The position numbers and the translations under genes were made by a program. This document shows, one piece after another, positions 25,404-31,434 of a stretch of DNA of 64,000 nt; the first letter of the stretch is position 1, and each line of letters begins with the position of its first letter. The stretch spans positions 1,216,001 through 1,280,000 of the forward strand of contig CBDBBI010000010.1 in the NCBI GenBank assembly GCA_965202625.1, given 5' to 3'. The notes below the pieces were generated by a model. The model had not been told where the DNA came from. It worked only from the letters and a program-made list of their open reading frames with translations, and searched no databases. This stretch comes from a bacterium (GTDB taxonomy: Bacteria > UBA8248).

Positions 25404-25553
25404 GACGACTCCTGTTCCCTGGGCTTGGTATTTTATGGCTTCACCGCTTTATAAACTGGCAATGCGAGGAGTTGCGCTCCATGCCCTCTCCGCACATCCT
25501 ACAAGAACGAGAAGGGCGATGAGAAATGGACAGGGACGCGCGCATCATGCAAT

Positions 25554-25607
25554 TCACTCTCGCTCAATCGCGGGCGGCGTCCTGGAGAAGACGTCATACG
25601 CCGCGCG
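25554..25607 (-). repeat. Degenerate displaced copy of the guaA 3' end (attR-like island boundary)
   Basis: Ungapped hand alignment to 29642-29695 gives 42/54 identical nt. Translates RAAYDVFSRTPPAIERE* versus Gua[18 protein letters not shown]. Confidence 0.85.
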
Positions 25608-25608
25608 C

Positions 25609-26130
25609 CTAGTTGTGGAAACCCCTGAATTCCACGACGTCTTGAACGAGATTTCCCCTGTAGCGCAAGTTCTCATGCAAATTCGTATTCAGCACGACCC
25701 TTATCTTCAGATTTCCCTTTGGCAAGTTATCCATAAAATGCGAACTGCCATAGAGTCTCGTTATCTTCTTCCCGTTGACGTAGAGGTGCGCGTGTCCCTC
25801 CTTGATCCTGGAAGTCTTGTTGACCTCCTCGGGCGCGAATCGGAAATTTTCCAGATCGAGAAACAAATTGAGCGCACCTCTGGAGTGGGCGTCTCTCTCC
25901 AGGCGTATCTTCACGCTCGGCGGGTTCTCGTAGTCGGCGGGAATCACCTTCACGGTATGCTTCATCCCGCCGGCGCGGGGCTCGTGCATCCCATGCCCAT
26001 GTTCTTTCTTGTCGCGGTTCTGGGCGAACAGCGCATCACCACGGGGACTCGCTACCAGAAGAAGCGAGGCCAGGAAAAAGGACGAAACCACGATGATCCA
26101 GGGCTTCCCCGCGCGATATATCTTCTTCAT
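25609..26130 (-). CDS. Exported His/Met-rich hypothetical protein (possible metal-binding)
   Basis: Signal peptide, EHGHGMHE, GHAHLYVNGKKITRLYG, NTNLHE. Confidence 0.7.
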   Translation of the reverse strand: MKKIYRAGKPWIIVVSSFFLASLLLVASPRGDALFAQNRDKKEHGHGMHEPRAGGMKHTVKVIPADYENPPSVKIRLERDAHSRGALNLFLDLENFRFAPEEVNKTSRIKEGHAHLYVNGKKITRLYGSSHFMDNLPKGNLKIRVVLNTNLHENLRYRGNLVQDVVEFRGFHN

Positions 26131-26351
26131 CGTTCATCTCCCCCATCGCTCTTCAGACGCGGCGGCGCGCCTCGGAGCCAAAATTCCGCGCAACGCGCTG
26201 TTTTCAAGCATCAAGCCTGTGCCCGCGCAACAACTTTTTGCTTTCGTCTCTTAACGGAGTTCGCAACCTCTTCGTCGCCCTATCGTCTTTCCCTGTCATT
26301 TGGGAATGGACGTTTTCGCTCCCGCTGCCTTGTGAAAACCGGAGAGAAAAG

Positions 26352-27053
26352 ATGCGCAAATTTCCGCTCCTCATTATTATCGCCTTCCTCTGGGGATGTA
26401 AAACTTCATCCGTCACGTTCTTCGATACGGGCAATAGAGCGACCTATAAAGACGAGGACTGGAACACGGCGTTCTACGAGAACTGCGACGTTCCGAAATC
26501 CTCCATCAAATGGGTGCAAGAAGGCGATGAGAGGTTCTTGCGCTTCACGCTCAAAAACAAACAAATCGGAGGATGTCGCTCCGACGCTGCGGCCAGGCAT
26601 CGCGCGCCATACTGGGAACGCGCAGAGATAAAGCAGGCGAGCACCCTGAAAGACGATGCAGATTACGGGCTGACCTTCAGGATGAGGCTCGTAAAAGGAT
26701 TCACCCACGAGAGAGAAGCCTTTTTTCAAATGCACCAAAGCGTGAAAGGCTGCAGGGCGGGGCCTCCGCTCATGTTCAAGTTTCAAAACGGGCGTTTCAA
26801 GGGGAGCGTCCACGTCAATGACGTTATCGGGAAATGGGTGGATGTGAGAATGGAGTTCAACATCAAGAAATCGCGTTACGACCTGTATTTTGACGGCGGG
26901 AAAATCGTGGCCGATGGATACTTTTCCGTTGCGTCATGCGGAGAGCCGCATTTCAAATTCGGAATATATCGCCCCGGAGACAGGGGGGAGGTGGGAGAAA
27001 GGATATCCGTATTGGATATCGATAAAATCCAGCTGGTGGAAATGAAGAAATAA
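26352..27053 (+). CDS. Lipoprotein, polysaccharide lyase / heparin lyase I-like jelly-roll family
   Basis: MRKFPLLIIIAFLWGC lipobox; ERAEI, FFQMHQ and HFKFGIYR motifs typical of beta-jelly-roll lyases. Confidence 0.72.
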   Translation: MRKFPLLIIIAFLWGCKTSSVTFFDTGNRATYKDEDWNTAFYENCDVPKSSIKWVQEGDERFLRFTLKNKQIGGCRSDAAARHRAPYWERAEIKQASTLKDDADYGLTFRMRLVKGFTHEREAFFQMHQSVKGCRAGPPLMFKFQNGRFKGSVHVNDVIGKWVDVRMEFNIKKSRYDLYFDGGKIVADGYFSVASCGEPHFKFGIYRPGDRGEVGERISVLDIDKIQLVEMKK

Positions 27054-27259
27054 AAGTCTTCGCGCAAGCGATGAGTTTCGTCCGCCGCTTACTCCCACGC
27101 AATGGCAACGTTGATTTTTCTCGCTTATCATCCATTCGTCATGGAACGCCCTCCGCACTGCCTTCCGCTCTGCTTCTCGCCGCGCAATCGGCCACATGGC
27201 AATCGTGTTATGAGGCCGTTCACGCCAAACAGAATAAGAAGTTCAAAATTTCTTACACA

Positions 27260-28609
27260 TCATTGATGGAAAAAACATAAACAGTACCAAAGAGATCTTT
27301 CATAAATATTGGGTTCGCGCACGAAGCGGAGGTGACTACCTATTTCAGCGTTTTTCCAGTGCGCATATCTTGGTCCCCTCAAAAGCCTATGCAGCAGGTT
27401 ATGCTCAAGGGTGATTTGCAAATATTTCGAGGAGAAGGGGATGAACGAATCATCTTCTGCGTCCATAAACCTGGGAGGTTTTTCTATTCCCATTGAAAAG
27501 CGTATATCGGGAGTCTGAATAACAACATCCGTATGCGTCCTGTAGCGAAGTTCGTTCGCTTTATCTCTGAAGCGCTCCCACGCAGAGGAAACCAGGGCTT
27601 CAAGCGCGCTATCGTCCCACCTGTCTTCGTCAAATATAAAGTCTTTACTTTCGATGTATTCGACATACTCTTCGTAACTTACATCACGCTTCTTGTCGCT
27701 CCCTAATTTTGCATGCGCATTGACGTCGTAAACGTCCAGCTGCTCAAGAAGCACTCCCTCTGCACCAGATTCGGTGTTTTCCGCGATATAGTCTATCGCG
27801 TATTGCATCGACGGAATTCCTAGATACTTCGTCAACCCGGAGAGCCTCGACCCTAGAATATATATGCCGGCAAAAGGTATGAAGGTTTTCGGTTTCAGGA
27901 GGTCAAGATACCTTAGAGCTTCTTCCAGAAACTGTTTTTCTTTCGCTTTCGCCGCCTCCAGTTTGTCCTGTTCCGTTGGAAACGTGAAACATTGGGGATA
28001 TGGCCCAGCACCAGCATAGGCCACCAGCAAAACATCAATTGCTTTTTGAACGATTCCATTCTCTCTCAACGTTGTCTCAGCGAGGTCCAATGGACAATCA
28101 TTCGTGTTGAGAATGGTCCGATCGTTACATTGAAACAACGCCAGCGTATCTATCTGCGTGGACCCGAATTTTTTCTCCAAAACGCCGCATCCGAAAAACT
28201 TTCCGCAGAGTTCCGGATTGCAATTGTCCGCCGCGTATATTGTGATTGATGCGCCATTTTCAAAAATATAAGGGGCTGCGTTATCGCATTCGACAACTTC
28301 AAAGCCGAGATTTTCAATGTTGCGTTTCAAGAACTTGGAATCGTAATTATGGATCAAAACCGGCACTTTTCTAGGCAATACCTTAAAAGTGTCCTCACTC
28401 AAATGGTCCGGATGGATGTGGCTCACATAGATATAGTCATAGTCAAGGCGCGAAATTTCATCAAACTCGAAGGGTGGATAATGATACCAGCTCCCGTAAT
28501 ATTCTCCCTCGGTTAACCACGGGTCGGTAAGAATTTTTACATCCCCGAGACGAATTATTTGAGTTGCGCTTTGGAGATGCGTTATCGTTACGCTGTCTTT
28601 TAGTCTCAT
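27260..28609 (-). CDS. Metallo-beta-lactamase-fold protein (UlaG / CMP-Neu5Ac-hydroxylase-like, no Rieske domain)
   Basis: ILTDPWL, YYGSW, YVSHIHPDH, NTNDC. AT-richer. Confidence 0.82.
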   Translation of the reverse strand: MRLKDSVTITHLQSATQIIRLGDVKILTDPWLTEGEYYGSWYHYPPFEFDEISRLDYDYIYVSHIHPDHLSEDTFKVLPRKVPVLIHNYDSKFLKRNIENLGFEVVECDNAAPYIFENGASITIYAADNCNPELCGKFFGCGVLEKKFGSTQIDTLALFQCNDRTILNTNDCPLDLAETTLRENGIVQKAIDVLLVAYAGAGPYPQCFTFPTEQDKLEAAKAKEKQFLEEALRYLDLLKPKTFIPFAGIYILGSRLSGLTKYLGIPSMQYAIDYIAENTESGAEGVLLEQLDVYDVNAHAKLGSDKKRDVSYEEYVEYIESKDFIFDEDRWDDSALEALVSSAWERFRDKANELRYRTHTDVVIQTPDIRFSMGIEKPPRFMDAEDDSFIPFSSKYLQITLEHNLLHRLLRGPRYAHWKNAEIGSHLRFVREPNIYERSLWYCLCFFHQ

Positions 28610-28761
28610 AAGGAGTTCGGAGTTCGGAGTTCGGAGTTCGGAGTTCGGAGTTCGGAGTTCGGAGTTCGGAGTTCGGAGTTCGGAGTTCGGAGTTCGGAGT
28701 TCGGAGTTCGGAATGATAATTTAGCATCTTTGTTCGAATATTTCAACATGAATGATTTCAT
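28606..28761 (-). CDS. Putative leader ORF running through the heptamer tract; stop overlaps the MBL start (ATGA)
   Basis: GAGGAG at 28764-28769, in-frame ATGs at 28761 and 28749, TGA at 28606-28608 overlapping ATG at 28607-28609. SD spacing is suboptimal. Confidence 0.45.
   Translation of the reverse strand: MKSFMLKYSNKDAKLSFRTPNSELRTPNSELRTPNSELRTPNSELRTPNSL
28612..28712. repeat. Perfect heptanucleotide tandem repeat (GGAGTTC)14+GGA, i.e. (GAACTCC)n on the coding strand
   Basis: Counted directly: 14 perfect units at 28612-28709 plus 3 nt. The tract ends 2 nt before the MBL ATG. Confidence 0.98.
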
Positions 28762-28803
28762 ATCTCCTCGCTTCAGCCGCTTTTGTGCTGCGGACAAGAG
28801 AAC

Positions 28804-29466
28804 TCAGCAATCAAAGGTTCCCGCTACCTCCACCCTTCCAGAACCATCCGGGAATTTCTGAAAAAAACCTTCCACCAACTCATCAATCACCTGGTTCATC
28901 TGCGAGCAAGGCCCCGAACTGCGCAGGCGCCCCTCATACACCTTTTTTCGTGTTTTTCTCTCCACAATATCTATGGCGATATTTCGCCCGAATATTTCGG
29001 AAGTTACGGTGCTCGTTCTGCTGCCGACGACGCCGAACGTCGGCATTGAATAGCTTGTCCCACTATAACGCCCATAACCACGGCCGTAAACAGTTCCGGA
29101 ATGATACGTCGTGCCGCCGCCCGTAGAACCGTAAACAGGCATGCTAACGATATCCTTTGCAATTTTTCCGCCATCCACCCCGTAGGAAACAAACGCCACG
29201 TAGTCTGCGGAATCATCAATCGTCGCCACTGTGAAACCCGCCTTCCTGAAGCCGTTTTCAAACTTTGGTCGATAAGATTTCCATTCGAGAGTCTTGTTTT
29301 TTTCTTCGGGATGTGCCAGAAGGTGAATTGTCTTTCCAGCAAATTTCTTGGGAAGTTCAGAAAACGACGAAACATTCGCCGCCACACTCGGTCCCGCTAT
29401 ATCCGTCACTCCCTGACACCCGGCGGTGCCCACCGCTATCATTGCCAGCATCATGAATTTTTTCAT
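28804..29466 (-). CDS. Lipoprotein, DUF4136-like
   Basis: MKKFMMLAMIAVGTAGC lipobox, ADYVAFVSYG, Gly/Tyr/Thr-rich middle, IDIVERK..KVYEG. Confidence 0.7.
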   Translation of the reverse strand: MKKFMMLAMIAVGTAGCQGVTDIAGPSVAANVSSFSELPKKFAGKTIHLLAHPEEKNKTLEWKSYRPKFENGFRKAGFTVATIDDSADYVAFVSYGVDGGKIAKDIVSMPVYGSTGGGTTYHSGTVYGRGYGRYSGTSYSMPTFGVVGSRTSTVTSEIFGRNIAIDIVERKTRKKVYEGRLRSSGPCSQMNQVIDELVEGFFQKFPDGSGRVEVAGTFDC

Positions 29467-29641
29467 CTTTCCCTCACCGTTCATTGCGCAAAGCTGAAGC
29501 ATTTCAGGCACGCCTCACTATGCTGGTCTCTCGTTCTCCCAATCAGAATACACAAAGAGCATAAAACCGCGCACTGCGCGATACAAACTCTCATTCCGAT
29601 CGTGGGTTGGCGTTGCCCTGCGCAATGATTTACACAAAAAA

Positions 29642-31174
29642 CTACTCCCACTCAATCGTGCCCGGCGGCTTGGAGGAGACGTCATACACCACGCGGTTCA
29701 CGCCGCGCACCTCATTGATGATGCGCGATGAGGTTTCTGCGAGCAAATCCGGCGGAAGCCTGGCCCAGTCCGCCGTCATTCCGTCCTCGCTGGTGACCGC
29801 ACGCAGGGCGAGGGCGTTCTCATAAGTTCTCGCGTCGCCCATCACGCCCACGGTGCGGACGGGCAGCAAGACGGCGAACGCCTGCCAGACTTTGTCGTAG
29901 TAATCATGTCTTTTAAGCGTCTCGATGAAGATGGCGTCCGCCTCCTGAAGGGTCGCCACCCGACCTTCCGTCACCTCGCCCAGAATGCGCACGGCGAGGC
30001 CGGGCCCCGGAAACGGATGCCGCCAGAGCATCTCCCGGGGCAGACCAAGGGCCGCTCCCGCCGCGCGCACCTCGTCCTTGAACAACTCGCGCAAGGGTTC
30101 GACGAGGGCGAGACGCATCCGCTCGGGAAGGCCGCCCACGTTGTGGTGGCTTTTTATCGTCGCCGAAGGTCCCTTGAACGAGACGCTCTCGATAACGTCG
30201 GGATACAGGGTTCCCTGGGCGAGGAACCCCACGTCGCCCAGCTTCCCCGCCTCGCGCTCGAAAACGCGGATGAAGGTCGCGCCGATGCGCTTTCTCTTCT
30301 CCTCGGGATCGACGACGCCGCGCAGAGCGTCCAGAAATTCCGCCCGCGCGTCCAGGTGCGCGAGGCGAAGCCTACCGCCAAAAATCGCCGCCACCTCCTC
30401 AGCCTCGTTTTTCCTGAGCAGTCCGTTGTCCACGAAGATGCAGGTGAGCCGCTCACCCACCGCCCGCTCGATGAGAATCGCCGCCACCGCAGAATCCACG
30501 CCGCCCGAGAGGCCGCACACCACGCGCCCCTCCCCGACCTGGCACCTGATGCGCTCCACCGCCTCCTCAACGAAAGAGCGCATCGTCCAGCCGCCCGCGC
30601 ATCCACAAACCGCGTGCACGAAATTGCCCAGAATCTCCTTCCCCCTCGGGGTGTGAGCGACTTCGGGGTGAAACTGGATGCCGTATCGTCGCTCATCGTC
30701 CGAGACCATGGCCGCCACCGGAGAGCCGTTGGAATGCGCGAGCGGCCTGTAGCCGGGCGGCGGCGACTCGATGGCGTCTCCGTGGCTCATCCAGACCGTC
30801 TCGACGCCCGGCGAGTCGGCGAAAACGCCCACCGCCTCGTCCACCACCAGCTCCGCGCGCCCGTATTCGCGCTTGCGATGGGGACCGACGCATCCGCCCA
30901 GAAGGTGGGTCATGAGCTGCATTCCGTAGCAGATGCCCAAGAGGGGGACGTCCAGGGCGAACAGGGCGGGGTCGAGCGTGGGCGCACCCTCCTCATAGAC
31001 GCTCATCGGTCCTCCCGAGAGGATGACGCCCCTGGTGTTCGCATCCACGAGCGCGCGCCAGTCGCAGACGCACGGGTGAATCTCACAATACACGCCGAGC
31101 TCGCGCACCCGCCGGGCGATGAGCTGCGTATATTGTGAGCCGAAATCAAGTATGAGTATCTGCTCGCGCGTCAT
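29642..31174 (-). CDS. guaA: GMP synthase (glutamine-hydrolysing)
   Basis: [51 protein letters not shown]. Confidence 0.99.
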
Positions 31175-31434
31175 CTTTGGACGAGGCGAAAAGAATCGCC
31201 TCCCCTCCCCTGAAGCCGTCCCGTCGGCATCCTGCATTCCTCAACGCCTCGGGGCAATCCTGGGCGGAGAATCAGAAAACCCCGTCATTCCGCATCACCT
31301 GAGCGGAACCATCCAGCGCGCCTCTATGCAGGCCGAAACGATAGAATAGAGAAACTCCTCTCGCCAGCATCAGACGGCGAGGGGGCAGGACTGGCGAGCG
31401 CGGCGGACGGACCCCCTGCGAACGCGCGCCTCGG

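Follow-up and report, generated by a model that had tools for sequence, protein, structure and literature searches.

A (GAACTCC)14 tract directly ahead of an acquired metallo-beta-lactamase-fold gene: a probable heptanucleotide contingency locus and how it might act

What does a long and perfect array of seven-nucleotide units do when it ends two nucleotides before the start codon of an intact gene? The question is raised by a stretch of 64,000 nucleotides from a bacterial genome of the UBA8248 lineage (assembly GCA_965202625.1, contig CBDBBI010000010.1, positions 1,216,001 to 1,280,000 of the forward strand; this whole stretch is called the window, and coordinates without a prefix are positions in it). 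There, fourteen copies of GAACTCC precede a minus-strand gene encoding a protein of metallo-beta-lactamase (MBL) fold. The tract is very probably a hypermutable heptanucleotide contingency locus setting the expression of this acquired enzyme. As to how it would do so, a translational frame switch of the neuO/lic2A type, operated from ATG codons in a short leader, was ranked first narrowly and is put forward here as a tentative choice. The most likely overall picture is that of a real and well-placed simple sequence repeat (SSR) acting as a contingency switch of a known kind, that is, an ordinary slippage-driven switch of the on/off or the volume type, and one of many heptamer switches of this sort in the genus.

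The perfect tract occupies positions 28612..28709 on the minus strand. Tandem Repeats Finder (TRF) returned a single array at 28612-28712, with a period of 7, 14.4 copies, 100% matches and a score of 202, since the periodicity runs 3 nt further, to 28712. The units stand in tandem without any mismatch (14 x 7 nt), and their length of 7 nt is not a multiple of 3. The tract is stop-free in every frame and encodes RTPNSEL heptads in all three, and (GAACTCC)14 is single-copy in the 3.09-Mb genome. On the minus strand, only 2 nt (TT) separate the end of the tract from the MBL ATG at 28609. The 20 nt preceding this ATG are repeat sequence and contain no GGAG, GAGG or AGGA, i.e., no Shine-Dalgarno (SD) sequence. 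That 14 perfect heptamers end 2 nt before an MBL start codon devoid of its own SD had been stated in an initial annotation of the window, and both TRF and the sequence bear this out.

An assembly artefact was considered as the origin of the array and ruled out, as contigs of two organism samples, of a sponge metagenome and of an RNA library enter the tract from its flanks. These public-run data are k=31 contigs (Logan) from four runs, and the contigs break inside the tract. In run X1, the ratio of k-mer depths (90 and 80 vs. 9.5 and 7.9) fits an n of about 14. In run X3, the depths (23.3 vs. 4.0 and 2.8) give a lower figure for n, at a depth of 3-4 for which the difference lies within noise, and this difference is no evidence of repeat-number variation. 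The contigs of the RNA library (X7) cover the leader and both edges of the tract, and run from the tract through the leader into the upstream DUF4136 gene; this library may contain DNA, and its depth cannot rank the parts of the locus. The right flank of the tract had no match in the metagenome contig scan. Rfam gave just two sub-threshold matches at chance level, neither of them at the tract, and complementarity between the tract units and 16S rRNA was limited to chance 7-8-mers. A whole-word search of the literature found no publication naming the heptamer GAACTCC (or GGAGTTC, AACTCCG) as a tandem repeat.

Three ATG codons precede the tract. The frame-A leader open reading frame (ORF; 28606..28761, minus strand) starts at ATG 28761, contains a second in-frame ATG at 28749, and consists of 17 codons, the tract, one leucine codon and a TGA, which amounts to 51 amino acids (aa) at n=14. 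It reads MKSFMLKYSNKDAKLSF, then RTPNSEL repeats, then L, and stops at TGA 28608-28606, so that at n=14 its stop codon and the start of MBL form an ATGA overlap (28606..28609, minus strand). The frames thus confirmed an earlier description of a leader ORF that crosses the stop-free tract and ends in such an overlap. An SD-like GAGGAG (28764..28769, minus strand) is separated from ATG 28761 by 2 nt and from ATG 28749 by 14 nt. The frame-B ORF (28461..28727, minus strand) starts at ATG 28727 (MLNYHS...), which has no SD; it encodes 88 aa and is out of frame at n=14. The MBL frame itself stays open upstream of the gene for 37 codons back to a TAA, and contains no ATG, GTG or TTG there.

The consequences of repeat number were computed with a script that varied n programmatically from 10 to 19. 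At n = 0 mod 3, ATG 28761 and ATG 28749 are both fused to MBL, giving proteins of 495-509 aa. At n = 1 mod 3, the fusion is to ATG 28727 in frame B (479-500 aa, with 486 aa and 493 aa at n=13 and n=16, respectively). The remaining class, n = 2 mod 3, to which the assembled state (n=14) belongs, is the only one that lacks an upstream ATG in frame, and in it the leader terminates at the ATGA overlap. Adding or removing one unit therefore restores or destroys the reading frame between leader and MBL. These results support the proposal that a slippage-prone SSR is placed so that n mod 3 changes the frame meeting the gene. The arithmetic offered with that proposal stood, both for the fusion at 0 mod 3 and for the ATGA overlap at 2 mod 3, but was incomplete for n=13 and n=16, which had been called probably OFF and need not be so, as ATG 28727 comes into frame. 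This third ATG had been missed, as had a promoter-like element in the leader and the set of heptamer tracts found across the genome and the genus, which are described below. A fusion requires that the tract lies after the last in-frame stop, as a tract ending 2 nt before the ATG does.

The MBL gene itself (27260..28609, minus strand) is intact and encodes 449 aa with an HxHxDH motif, SHIHPDH. The match to Pfam PF13483 (Lactamase_B_3) is marginal, with 25.6 bits against a cut-off of 24 and over the N-terminal part only, and a search of NCBIfam gave one far sub-threshold match for this protein and none for the other three proteins queried. In a 50-sequence alignment, H64, H66, D68 and H69 are invariant, and the protein keeps all 66 invariant columns. 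Its AlphaFold2 (AF2) model (pLDDT 90.7) has an MBL fold, for which the best Foldseek matches were an MBL of T. maritima (1.8e-11) and the diiron hydroxylases CmlA and FrsH (~1e-10); a profile search of PDB sequences returned FrsH alone (E = 0.0067). Motif, alignment and model point to a member of the MBL-fold superfamily, either a hydrolase or an oxygenase. There are 1275 relatives at E <= 1e-3, the best of which is 62% identical and most of which are 439 aa long; several carry the name 'UDP-MurNAc hydroxylase', all from one source.

The surroundings of the homologues were analyzed at nine loci, for which 45 of 98 ORFs were scanned. In three of the nine, the gene has NeuB and a TylF-like methyltransferase as its neighbours, four more contain Maf, GT25, WbqC, MBOAT/DltD, Wzz or FkbM-type genes, and two have housekeeping neighbours only. 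In marine bacteria and archaea, the family is found in islands for nonulosonic acids and surface glycans. We therefore read the gene as an intact foreign enzyme of such islands, and it is from this setting that we infer the nature of its substrate. Among 34 homologue loci, the 90 nt preceding the start were free of SSRs in every case. The closest genomic homologue (L026:6569-6578, in an Arenicellales metagenome-assembled genome), which is 70% identical over the first 178 residues, is present as two ORFs split at an intragenic G10 run in a gene that is AT-rich elsewhere. The split reflects either an assembly error at the homopolymer or a homopolymer switch that exists independently in this family of enzymes.

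Is the tract an isolated curiosity? An exhaustive scan for all heptamer tracts, which covered this genome (G000), found exactly three arrays of at least three units. All are perfect and long (23, 18 and 14 units), and there are no short arrays. The (AGAGAGC)18 tract (coding strand, G000:C10:2646121-2646246) is found 40 codons inside a type III mod gene (N6_N4_Mtase), ahead of a ResIII helicase gene. In the assembly, this repeat leaves the mod gene out of frame, and the gene likely encodes a phase-variable methyltransferase caught in its OFF state. The (GCACCTC)23 tract (G000:C10:1297681-1297841), situated ~17.7 kb past the end of the window, begins 2 nt after a TTGTCA-18-TAGAAT and ends 127 nt before a gene for a 1463-aa fused restriction-methylase (Mrr_cat-ResIII-helicase-N6_Mtase/Eco57I-like); it is non-coding because stops close all three downstream frames ahead of the ATG of the gene. 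Neither the GCACCTC nor the AGAGAGC unit was found in 22 congeners.

Other heptamer tracts are present in the genus. The congener G014 possesses two (GAACTCC)20 loci, C1:235803-235942 (L195) and C1:3224139-3224278 (L194), in paralogous surface-protein genes. Their layout is AAGGGAGG, 7 nt, an ATG plus 16 codons, (GAACTCC)20, and then the signal peptide of an FN3/PPC protein whose frame is open for >845 aa. Downstream of the tract there is no start codon, and a stop closes each of the other two frames within 2 codons; at n=20, both loci are out of frame and one unit away from ON. As predicted from these frames, the intragenic use of the GAACTCC heptamer in G014 is unambiguous. Four more congeners (G008, G022, G010, G003; L196-L205) contain at least ten (CCTCAAG)n tracts, which were exposed by a reversed control pattern. 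The ten that were fetched have 7-29 units and mostly lie 100-300 nt upstream of SD-bearing genes encoding SWM_repeat, cadherin-like, autotransporter, FN3 and PAP2 proteins, one exception being L203, whose tract is located 10 nt before the ATG of an ORF of >663 aa. Most of these tracts begin 5 nt after a promoter-like TTGCGT-17-TATACT and precede a conserved A(T/A)TAGATCG. A TAGAT is also observed after the G014 tracts and after (GCACCTC)23, and is absent after the tract studied here. Contingency loci classically act on restriction-modification systems and surface proteins, and it is because the heptamer tracts sit at genes of these classes that we hold the tract ahead of the MBL gene to be very probably a contingency locus as well.

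The GAACTCC repeat was also found in at least 120 metagenome contigs with at least five units, of which 80 were fetched. Their contexts are mixed, and their flanks share nothing with the studied locus; many are AT-rich, with the tract placed after the stop codon of an opposite-strand gene. Four of them (L097, L112, L114 and L119, one from the human gut) belong to a single locus, TTGACA-17-TACAAT-GCTCC-(GAACTCC)n, with n = 6, 7, 8 and 10. A GAACTCC repeat thus does change its length in nature, at that locus and not at the one studied here.

How, then, might the repeat number act on the MBL gene? In the tentatively preferred frame switch, translation would start in the short leader, either at ATG 28761 or 28749 (frame A) or at ATG 28727 (frame B), and the ribosome would read the stop-free tract as RTPNSEL heptads. 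The enzyme would be reached only with an ATG in frame, at n = 0 mod 3 from frame A and at n = 1 mod 3 from frame B. Because no upstream ATG is in frame at n=14, the assembled state would be OFF, or at most leaky via SD-less initiation or re-initiation at ATG 28609. Slipped-strand mispairing would gain or lose one unit, and the state would switch. By analogy, such a switch is supported by the intragenic use of the same heptamer in G014 and by the mod gene of this genome, which appears to be switched likewise. The perfection and uniqueness of the tract, the lack of an SD before the MBL ATG, the intactness of the enzyme, the position of its family beside glycan genes, the presence of three NeuB genes in the genome, the G10 split of the closest genomic homologue and the precedent of neuO and lic2A are further points in its favour, and the RNA-library contigs joining tract, leader and DUF4136 provide a weak hint in the same direction.

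Several observations weigh against this frame switch. The genome's own SD-to-ATG spacing peaks at 5-9 nt (107 of 2483 first ATGs of long ORFs have it at 8 nt), whereas a GGAG is found at 2 nt, as for ATG 28761, in 27 of the 2483 and at 14 nt, as for ATG 28749, in 15. The spacings of both leader ATGs, already regarded as poor in the initial annotation, are thus within the background range of the genome, and ATG 28727 has no SD at all. With a GC content of 26.9%, compared to 45.3% for the MBL coding sequence, the 49-nt leader looks non-coding, and over 94 nt of AT-rich sequence, chance would be expected to supply upstream ATGs with open frames. The N-termini of homologues had been suggested as a check, and these do begin near MRLKDSV: in a 15-sequence alignment, most start with M-K-V/I-T-H-L-Q-S, 7 residues inside it. 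A conserved N-terminal extension was observed in none of the 15, and heptad repeats were absent from the N-termini of the five longer homologues that were read.

A further objection comes from the leader itself. A sigma-70-like element, TTGAAA-17 nt-TAAATT with a TG before the -10 (28718..28746, minus strand), is located inside this 27%-GC region and ends 8 nt before the tract. If it is the main promoter, the leader ATGs are not on the mRNA. The element scores 9 of 12 hexamer positions plus the extended -10; a score of at least 9 was reached by 28 of 11734 background windows (0.2%) and by 3.5% of composition-matched shuffles. When 14 tracts of the genus were scored alike, the three intragenic ones scored 0 for an abutting promoter, and nine of the eleven non-intragenic ones scored at least 8/12, with a spacer of 17-18 nt and with 2-8 nt between the end of the -10 and the tract. 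Scores of at least 8 occur in 136 of the 11734 background windows (1.2%). Under a stricter promoter rule, only 3 of the 14 tracts pass, and the studied tract is among them.

The rival that survives best builds on this element, and we regard it as a serious possibility that takes second place. In the manner of hmw1A/2A or uspA2, the tract would be a 5' leader, here abutting a promoter: TTGAAA-17-TAAATT would be the MBL promoter, and transcription would begin at about the first repeat unit. An unstructured, G-poor (GAACUCC)14 would then make up the entire SD-less 5' untranslated region, the native ATG 28609 would always be used, and the leader ORFs would be due to chance. Under this explanation, n would not act on the frame; it would alter how much enzyme is made, by affecting the level or stability of the transcript or the loading of ribosomes. 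The scores of the non-intragenic tracts of the genus are in line with this, as is the certainly non-coding (GCACCTC)23 of the same genome, with its promoter-like element ending 2 nt before the repeat. So are the low GC content of the leader and the lack of structure in the tract RNA: the 251-nt leader RNA folds no better than shuffled sequences (z +1.52; 187 of 200 shuffles fold at least equally well). The earlier idea that the CUCC of the tract pairs with the GAGGAG of the leader fails this folding control, and the pairing is absent from the centroid structure of that RNA. In addition, ATG 28609 agrees with the N-terminus of the family. Partial parallels for a tract right before a start are L203 and L098, the latter a metagenome contig (67% GC) in which (GAACTCC)15 lies 5 nt before the ATG of an SD-less gene for an RF-1-domain (ArfB-like) protein, in a divergent intergenic region. 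The literature also describes TAACTGA repeats directly upstream of starts lacking a ribosome binding site (RBS), and hmw heptamers that modulate expression.

Against this explanation, the match is weak in absolute terms, given the shuffles that score as well and the result of a promoter tool that predicted 5 sites in 3 kb, compared to 3.3 +/- 1.9 in shuffles. Moreover, the eleven non-intragenic tracts amount to about six independent modules, as L197-L201 have one conserved upstream sequence in common, and the '-10' elements of L202 and L204 overlap an ATG. In the other modules, the genes lie 100-300 nt further and have a strong SD of their own, whereas here there is no SD, and the 2-nt adjacency is left unexplained. 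The RNA-library contigs reach upstream of the predicted transcriptional start site, although they may be DNA. Finally, the metagenome (GAACTCC)n loci have no general link with a canonical promoter: 3 of 72 adjacent windows pass, all from one locus, compared to 1 of 345 shifted windows.

The frame switch and the promoter-abutting leader are nearly tied, and their ranking is what it is because each leaves one coincidence of a few per cent unexplained, namely the promoter-like element in the case of the frame switch and the adjacency of tract and ATG in the case of the promoter-abutting leader.

A designed three-state switch is improbable. On top of the frame switch described above, it would have n = 2 mod 3 as a selected and substantial expression state, in which ribosomes finishing the 51-aa leader at the UGA re-initiate at the AUGA and produce an enzyme of native length. 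The ATGA overlap, the missing SD and a native-like ATG kept at the N-terminus of the family are consistent with it, as is the n = 2 mod 3 state of the assembled genome, with which the depth ratio of run X1 agrees. However, any ATG followed by an A yields the overlap by chance, coupling needs a well-translated leader and this one has a poor SD geometry, and the G014 switch, built with the same heptamer, has no such start and has stops in both off-frames. The translational coupling put forward in the initial annotation is an arithmetical possibility that found no support as a design. The design had also been thought unusual; yet the literature already describes a neuO heptamer that is ON at n divisible by 3 and multi-frame starts in lic2A.

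An equally doubtful composite would combine the two leading explanations: a promoter fires into a C-rich, G-poor and SD-less array that forms the whole 5' leader, and in transcripts reading through from the upstream gene n mod 3 picks one of two fusions or the re-initiated native form. It would give three protein outputs plus a length-dependent level, and such a module may be typical of the genus. Least probable of all is a neutral repeat, i.e., a recent tract in the 5' region without control of the gene in a lineage whose replication or repair favours heptamer expansion, for although heptamer tracts are common in the genus, the GAACTCC contigs of metagenomes have very mixed contexts and long SSRs of many genomes are most often heptamers (according to the introduction of PMC4679880), all three tracts of this genome are perfect and long, with no short arrays beside them, and sit at the 5' ends of phase-variable gene classes (two restriction-modification genes and a glycan-island enzyme), and the other tracts of the genus are associated with genes for surface proteins (FN3, SWM_repeat, cadherin-like, autotransporter and PAP2).

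The MBL gene is of foreign origin. It lies in a low-GC island (25500..29600) of 45-55% GC, compared to ~62-68% in the flanks, that adjoins guaA. Upstream of the leader, a co-directional gene encoding a DUF4136 lipoprotein-like protein (28804..29511, minus strand) has its stop 42 nt upstream of ATG 28761, with no terminator-like site found in the interval. Neither the MBL gene nor the DUF4136 gene was found in the 22 congeners searched, and there is no tRNA gene beside the island. The island is directly downstream of guaA (29642-31237 in the window), and in Marinagarivorans algicola (L015) the glycan island containing the MBL homologue is directly downstream of guaB-guaA. The two placements may reflect a common insertion hotspot, or a coincidence.

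Elsewhere in the genome, three genes of the NeuB family (nonulosonic acid synthase) are grouped within 18 kb (G000:C10:1390011-1408022), ~145 kb from the MBL gene, which suggests an elaborate nonulosonic-acid glycan locus. A search of the genome for the Maf family gave no match, a result that is uninformative, as control genomes had no match either. Two homopolymer runs were also noted. A G13 run (G000:C10:1380117-1380129) lies in the 5' portion of an ORF that resembles NAD-dependent epimerases, at ~10 kb from the NeuB cluster, and an ORF that resembles short-chain dehydrogenases contains a G15 run (G000:C10:2444893-2444907); both are in frame in the assembly, and the names of the two ORFs were given by eye from their N-terminal motifs. 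These runs are possible further contingency loci.

If n varies, the MBL gene would encode a phase- or volume-variable glycan-island enzyme in a bacterium whose DNA occurs in sponge metagenome and marine metatranscriptome runs. To our knowledge, work on contingency loci has dealt almost exclusively with host-adapted pathogens. The main interest lies in the heptamer system found throughout the genus and in its promoter-abutting tracts: a genus in which long heptamer tracts are numerous, both at restriction-modification genes and at those encoding large secreted proteins, would be a good system in which to ask why units of 7 nt are preferred and how promoter-abutting tracts act. There is also a practical side, as a gene caller would annotate the MBL gene (and, conversely, the split mod gene) blind to a possible OFF state or repeat-dependent expression in the sequenced clone.

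Among known systems, the closest is neuO of E. coli K1, which encodes the polysialic-acid O-acetyltransferase of the CUS-3 prophage. PMC13001214 and PMC3046976 describe a heptanucleotide variable number tandem repeat (poly-psi, unit 5'-AAGACTC-3'), a full-length protein that is made only if n is divisible by 3, an extension that is dispensable for activity, and an OFF state in 42 of 64 sequenced genomes. Both loci have a heptamer at the extreme 5' end of a horizontally acquired enzyme gene, that of neuO modifying a sugar, and in both three units encode one hydrophilic heptad, RLKTQDS in neuO and RTPNSEL here. The neuO tract starts 2 nt after the start codon, whereas ours stops 2 nt short of a native-like ATG, with its first unit 52 nt downstream of a leader ATG whose SD spacing is poor. 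Two more features set our locus apart, namely an ATG in a second frame, which offers a possible second ON state, and a promoter-like element between the leader ATGs and the tract. There is no sequence relationship, neuO being described as a left-handed beta-helix in contrast to the MBL fold.

In lic2A of H. influenzae, translation can start ahead of a 5' SSR at codons that differ in frame, which yields more than two levels of expression (PMC4235727), and the repeat is a CAAT tract at the 5' end of a lipooligosaccharide (LOS) glycosyltransferase gene (PMC6625227). The likeness to our locus resides in the presence of several upstream ATGs in different frames before a 5' SSR. The unit is 4 nt instead of 7 nt, and lic2A is a LOS gene of a pathogen. 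Its functional start codons are said to have been mapped experimentally by Dixon in 2007, whereas those proposed here are predicted.

For the promoter-abutting explanation, the comparison is with hmw1A/hmw2A of H. influenzae and uspA1/uspA2 of M. catarrhalis, in which heptamer tracts of 13-38 units between promoter and start modulate expression and not frame, according to PMC2651432, PMC4235727 and PMC4679880. As described there, these tracts lie ~70-100 bp upstream of genes with their own translation signals, whereas ours abuts an SD-less ATG and has a predicted promoter. The TAACTGA direct repeats of marine Beggiatoaceae, Cyanobacteria and Bacteroidetes (MacGregor 2015, PMC4679880) are found a few nt upstream of starts, at the position of the RBS, and most of the ORFs concerned lack an SD; they usually have 2-6 copies at ~170 loci per genome and are proposed, from bioinformatics only, as a binding site for a post-transcriptional regulator. 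They resemble our tract in placement only, as a heptamer repeat directly before an SD-less start, and differ from it in that the unit is GAACTCC here, in a single 14-copy tract, and in that TAACTGA was not proposed as a mutable switch. Though homologous to none of neuO, lic2A and hmw1A/2A, the (GAACTCC)14 locus would, by analogy, work as they do.

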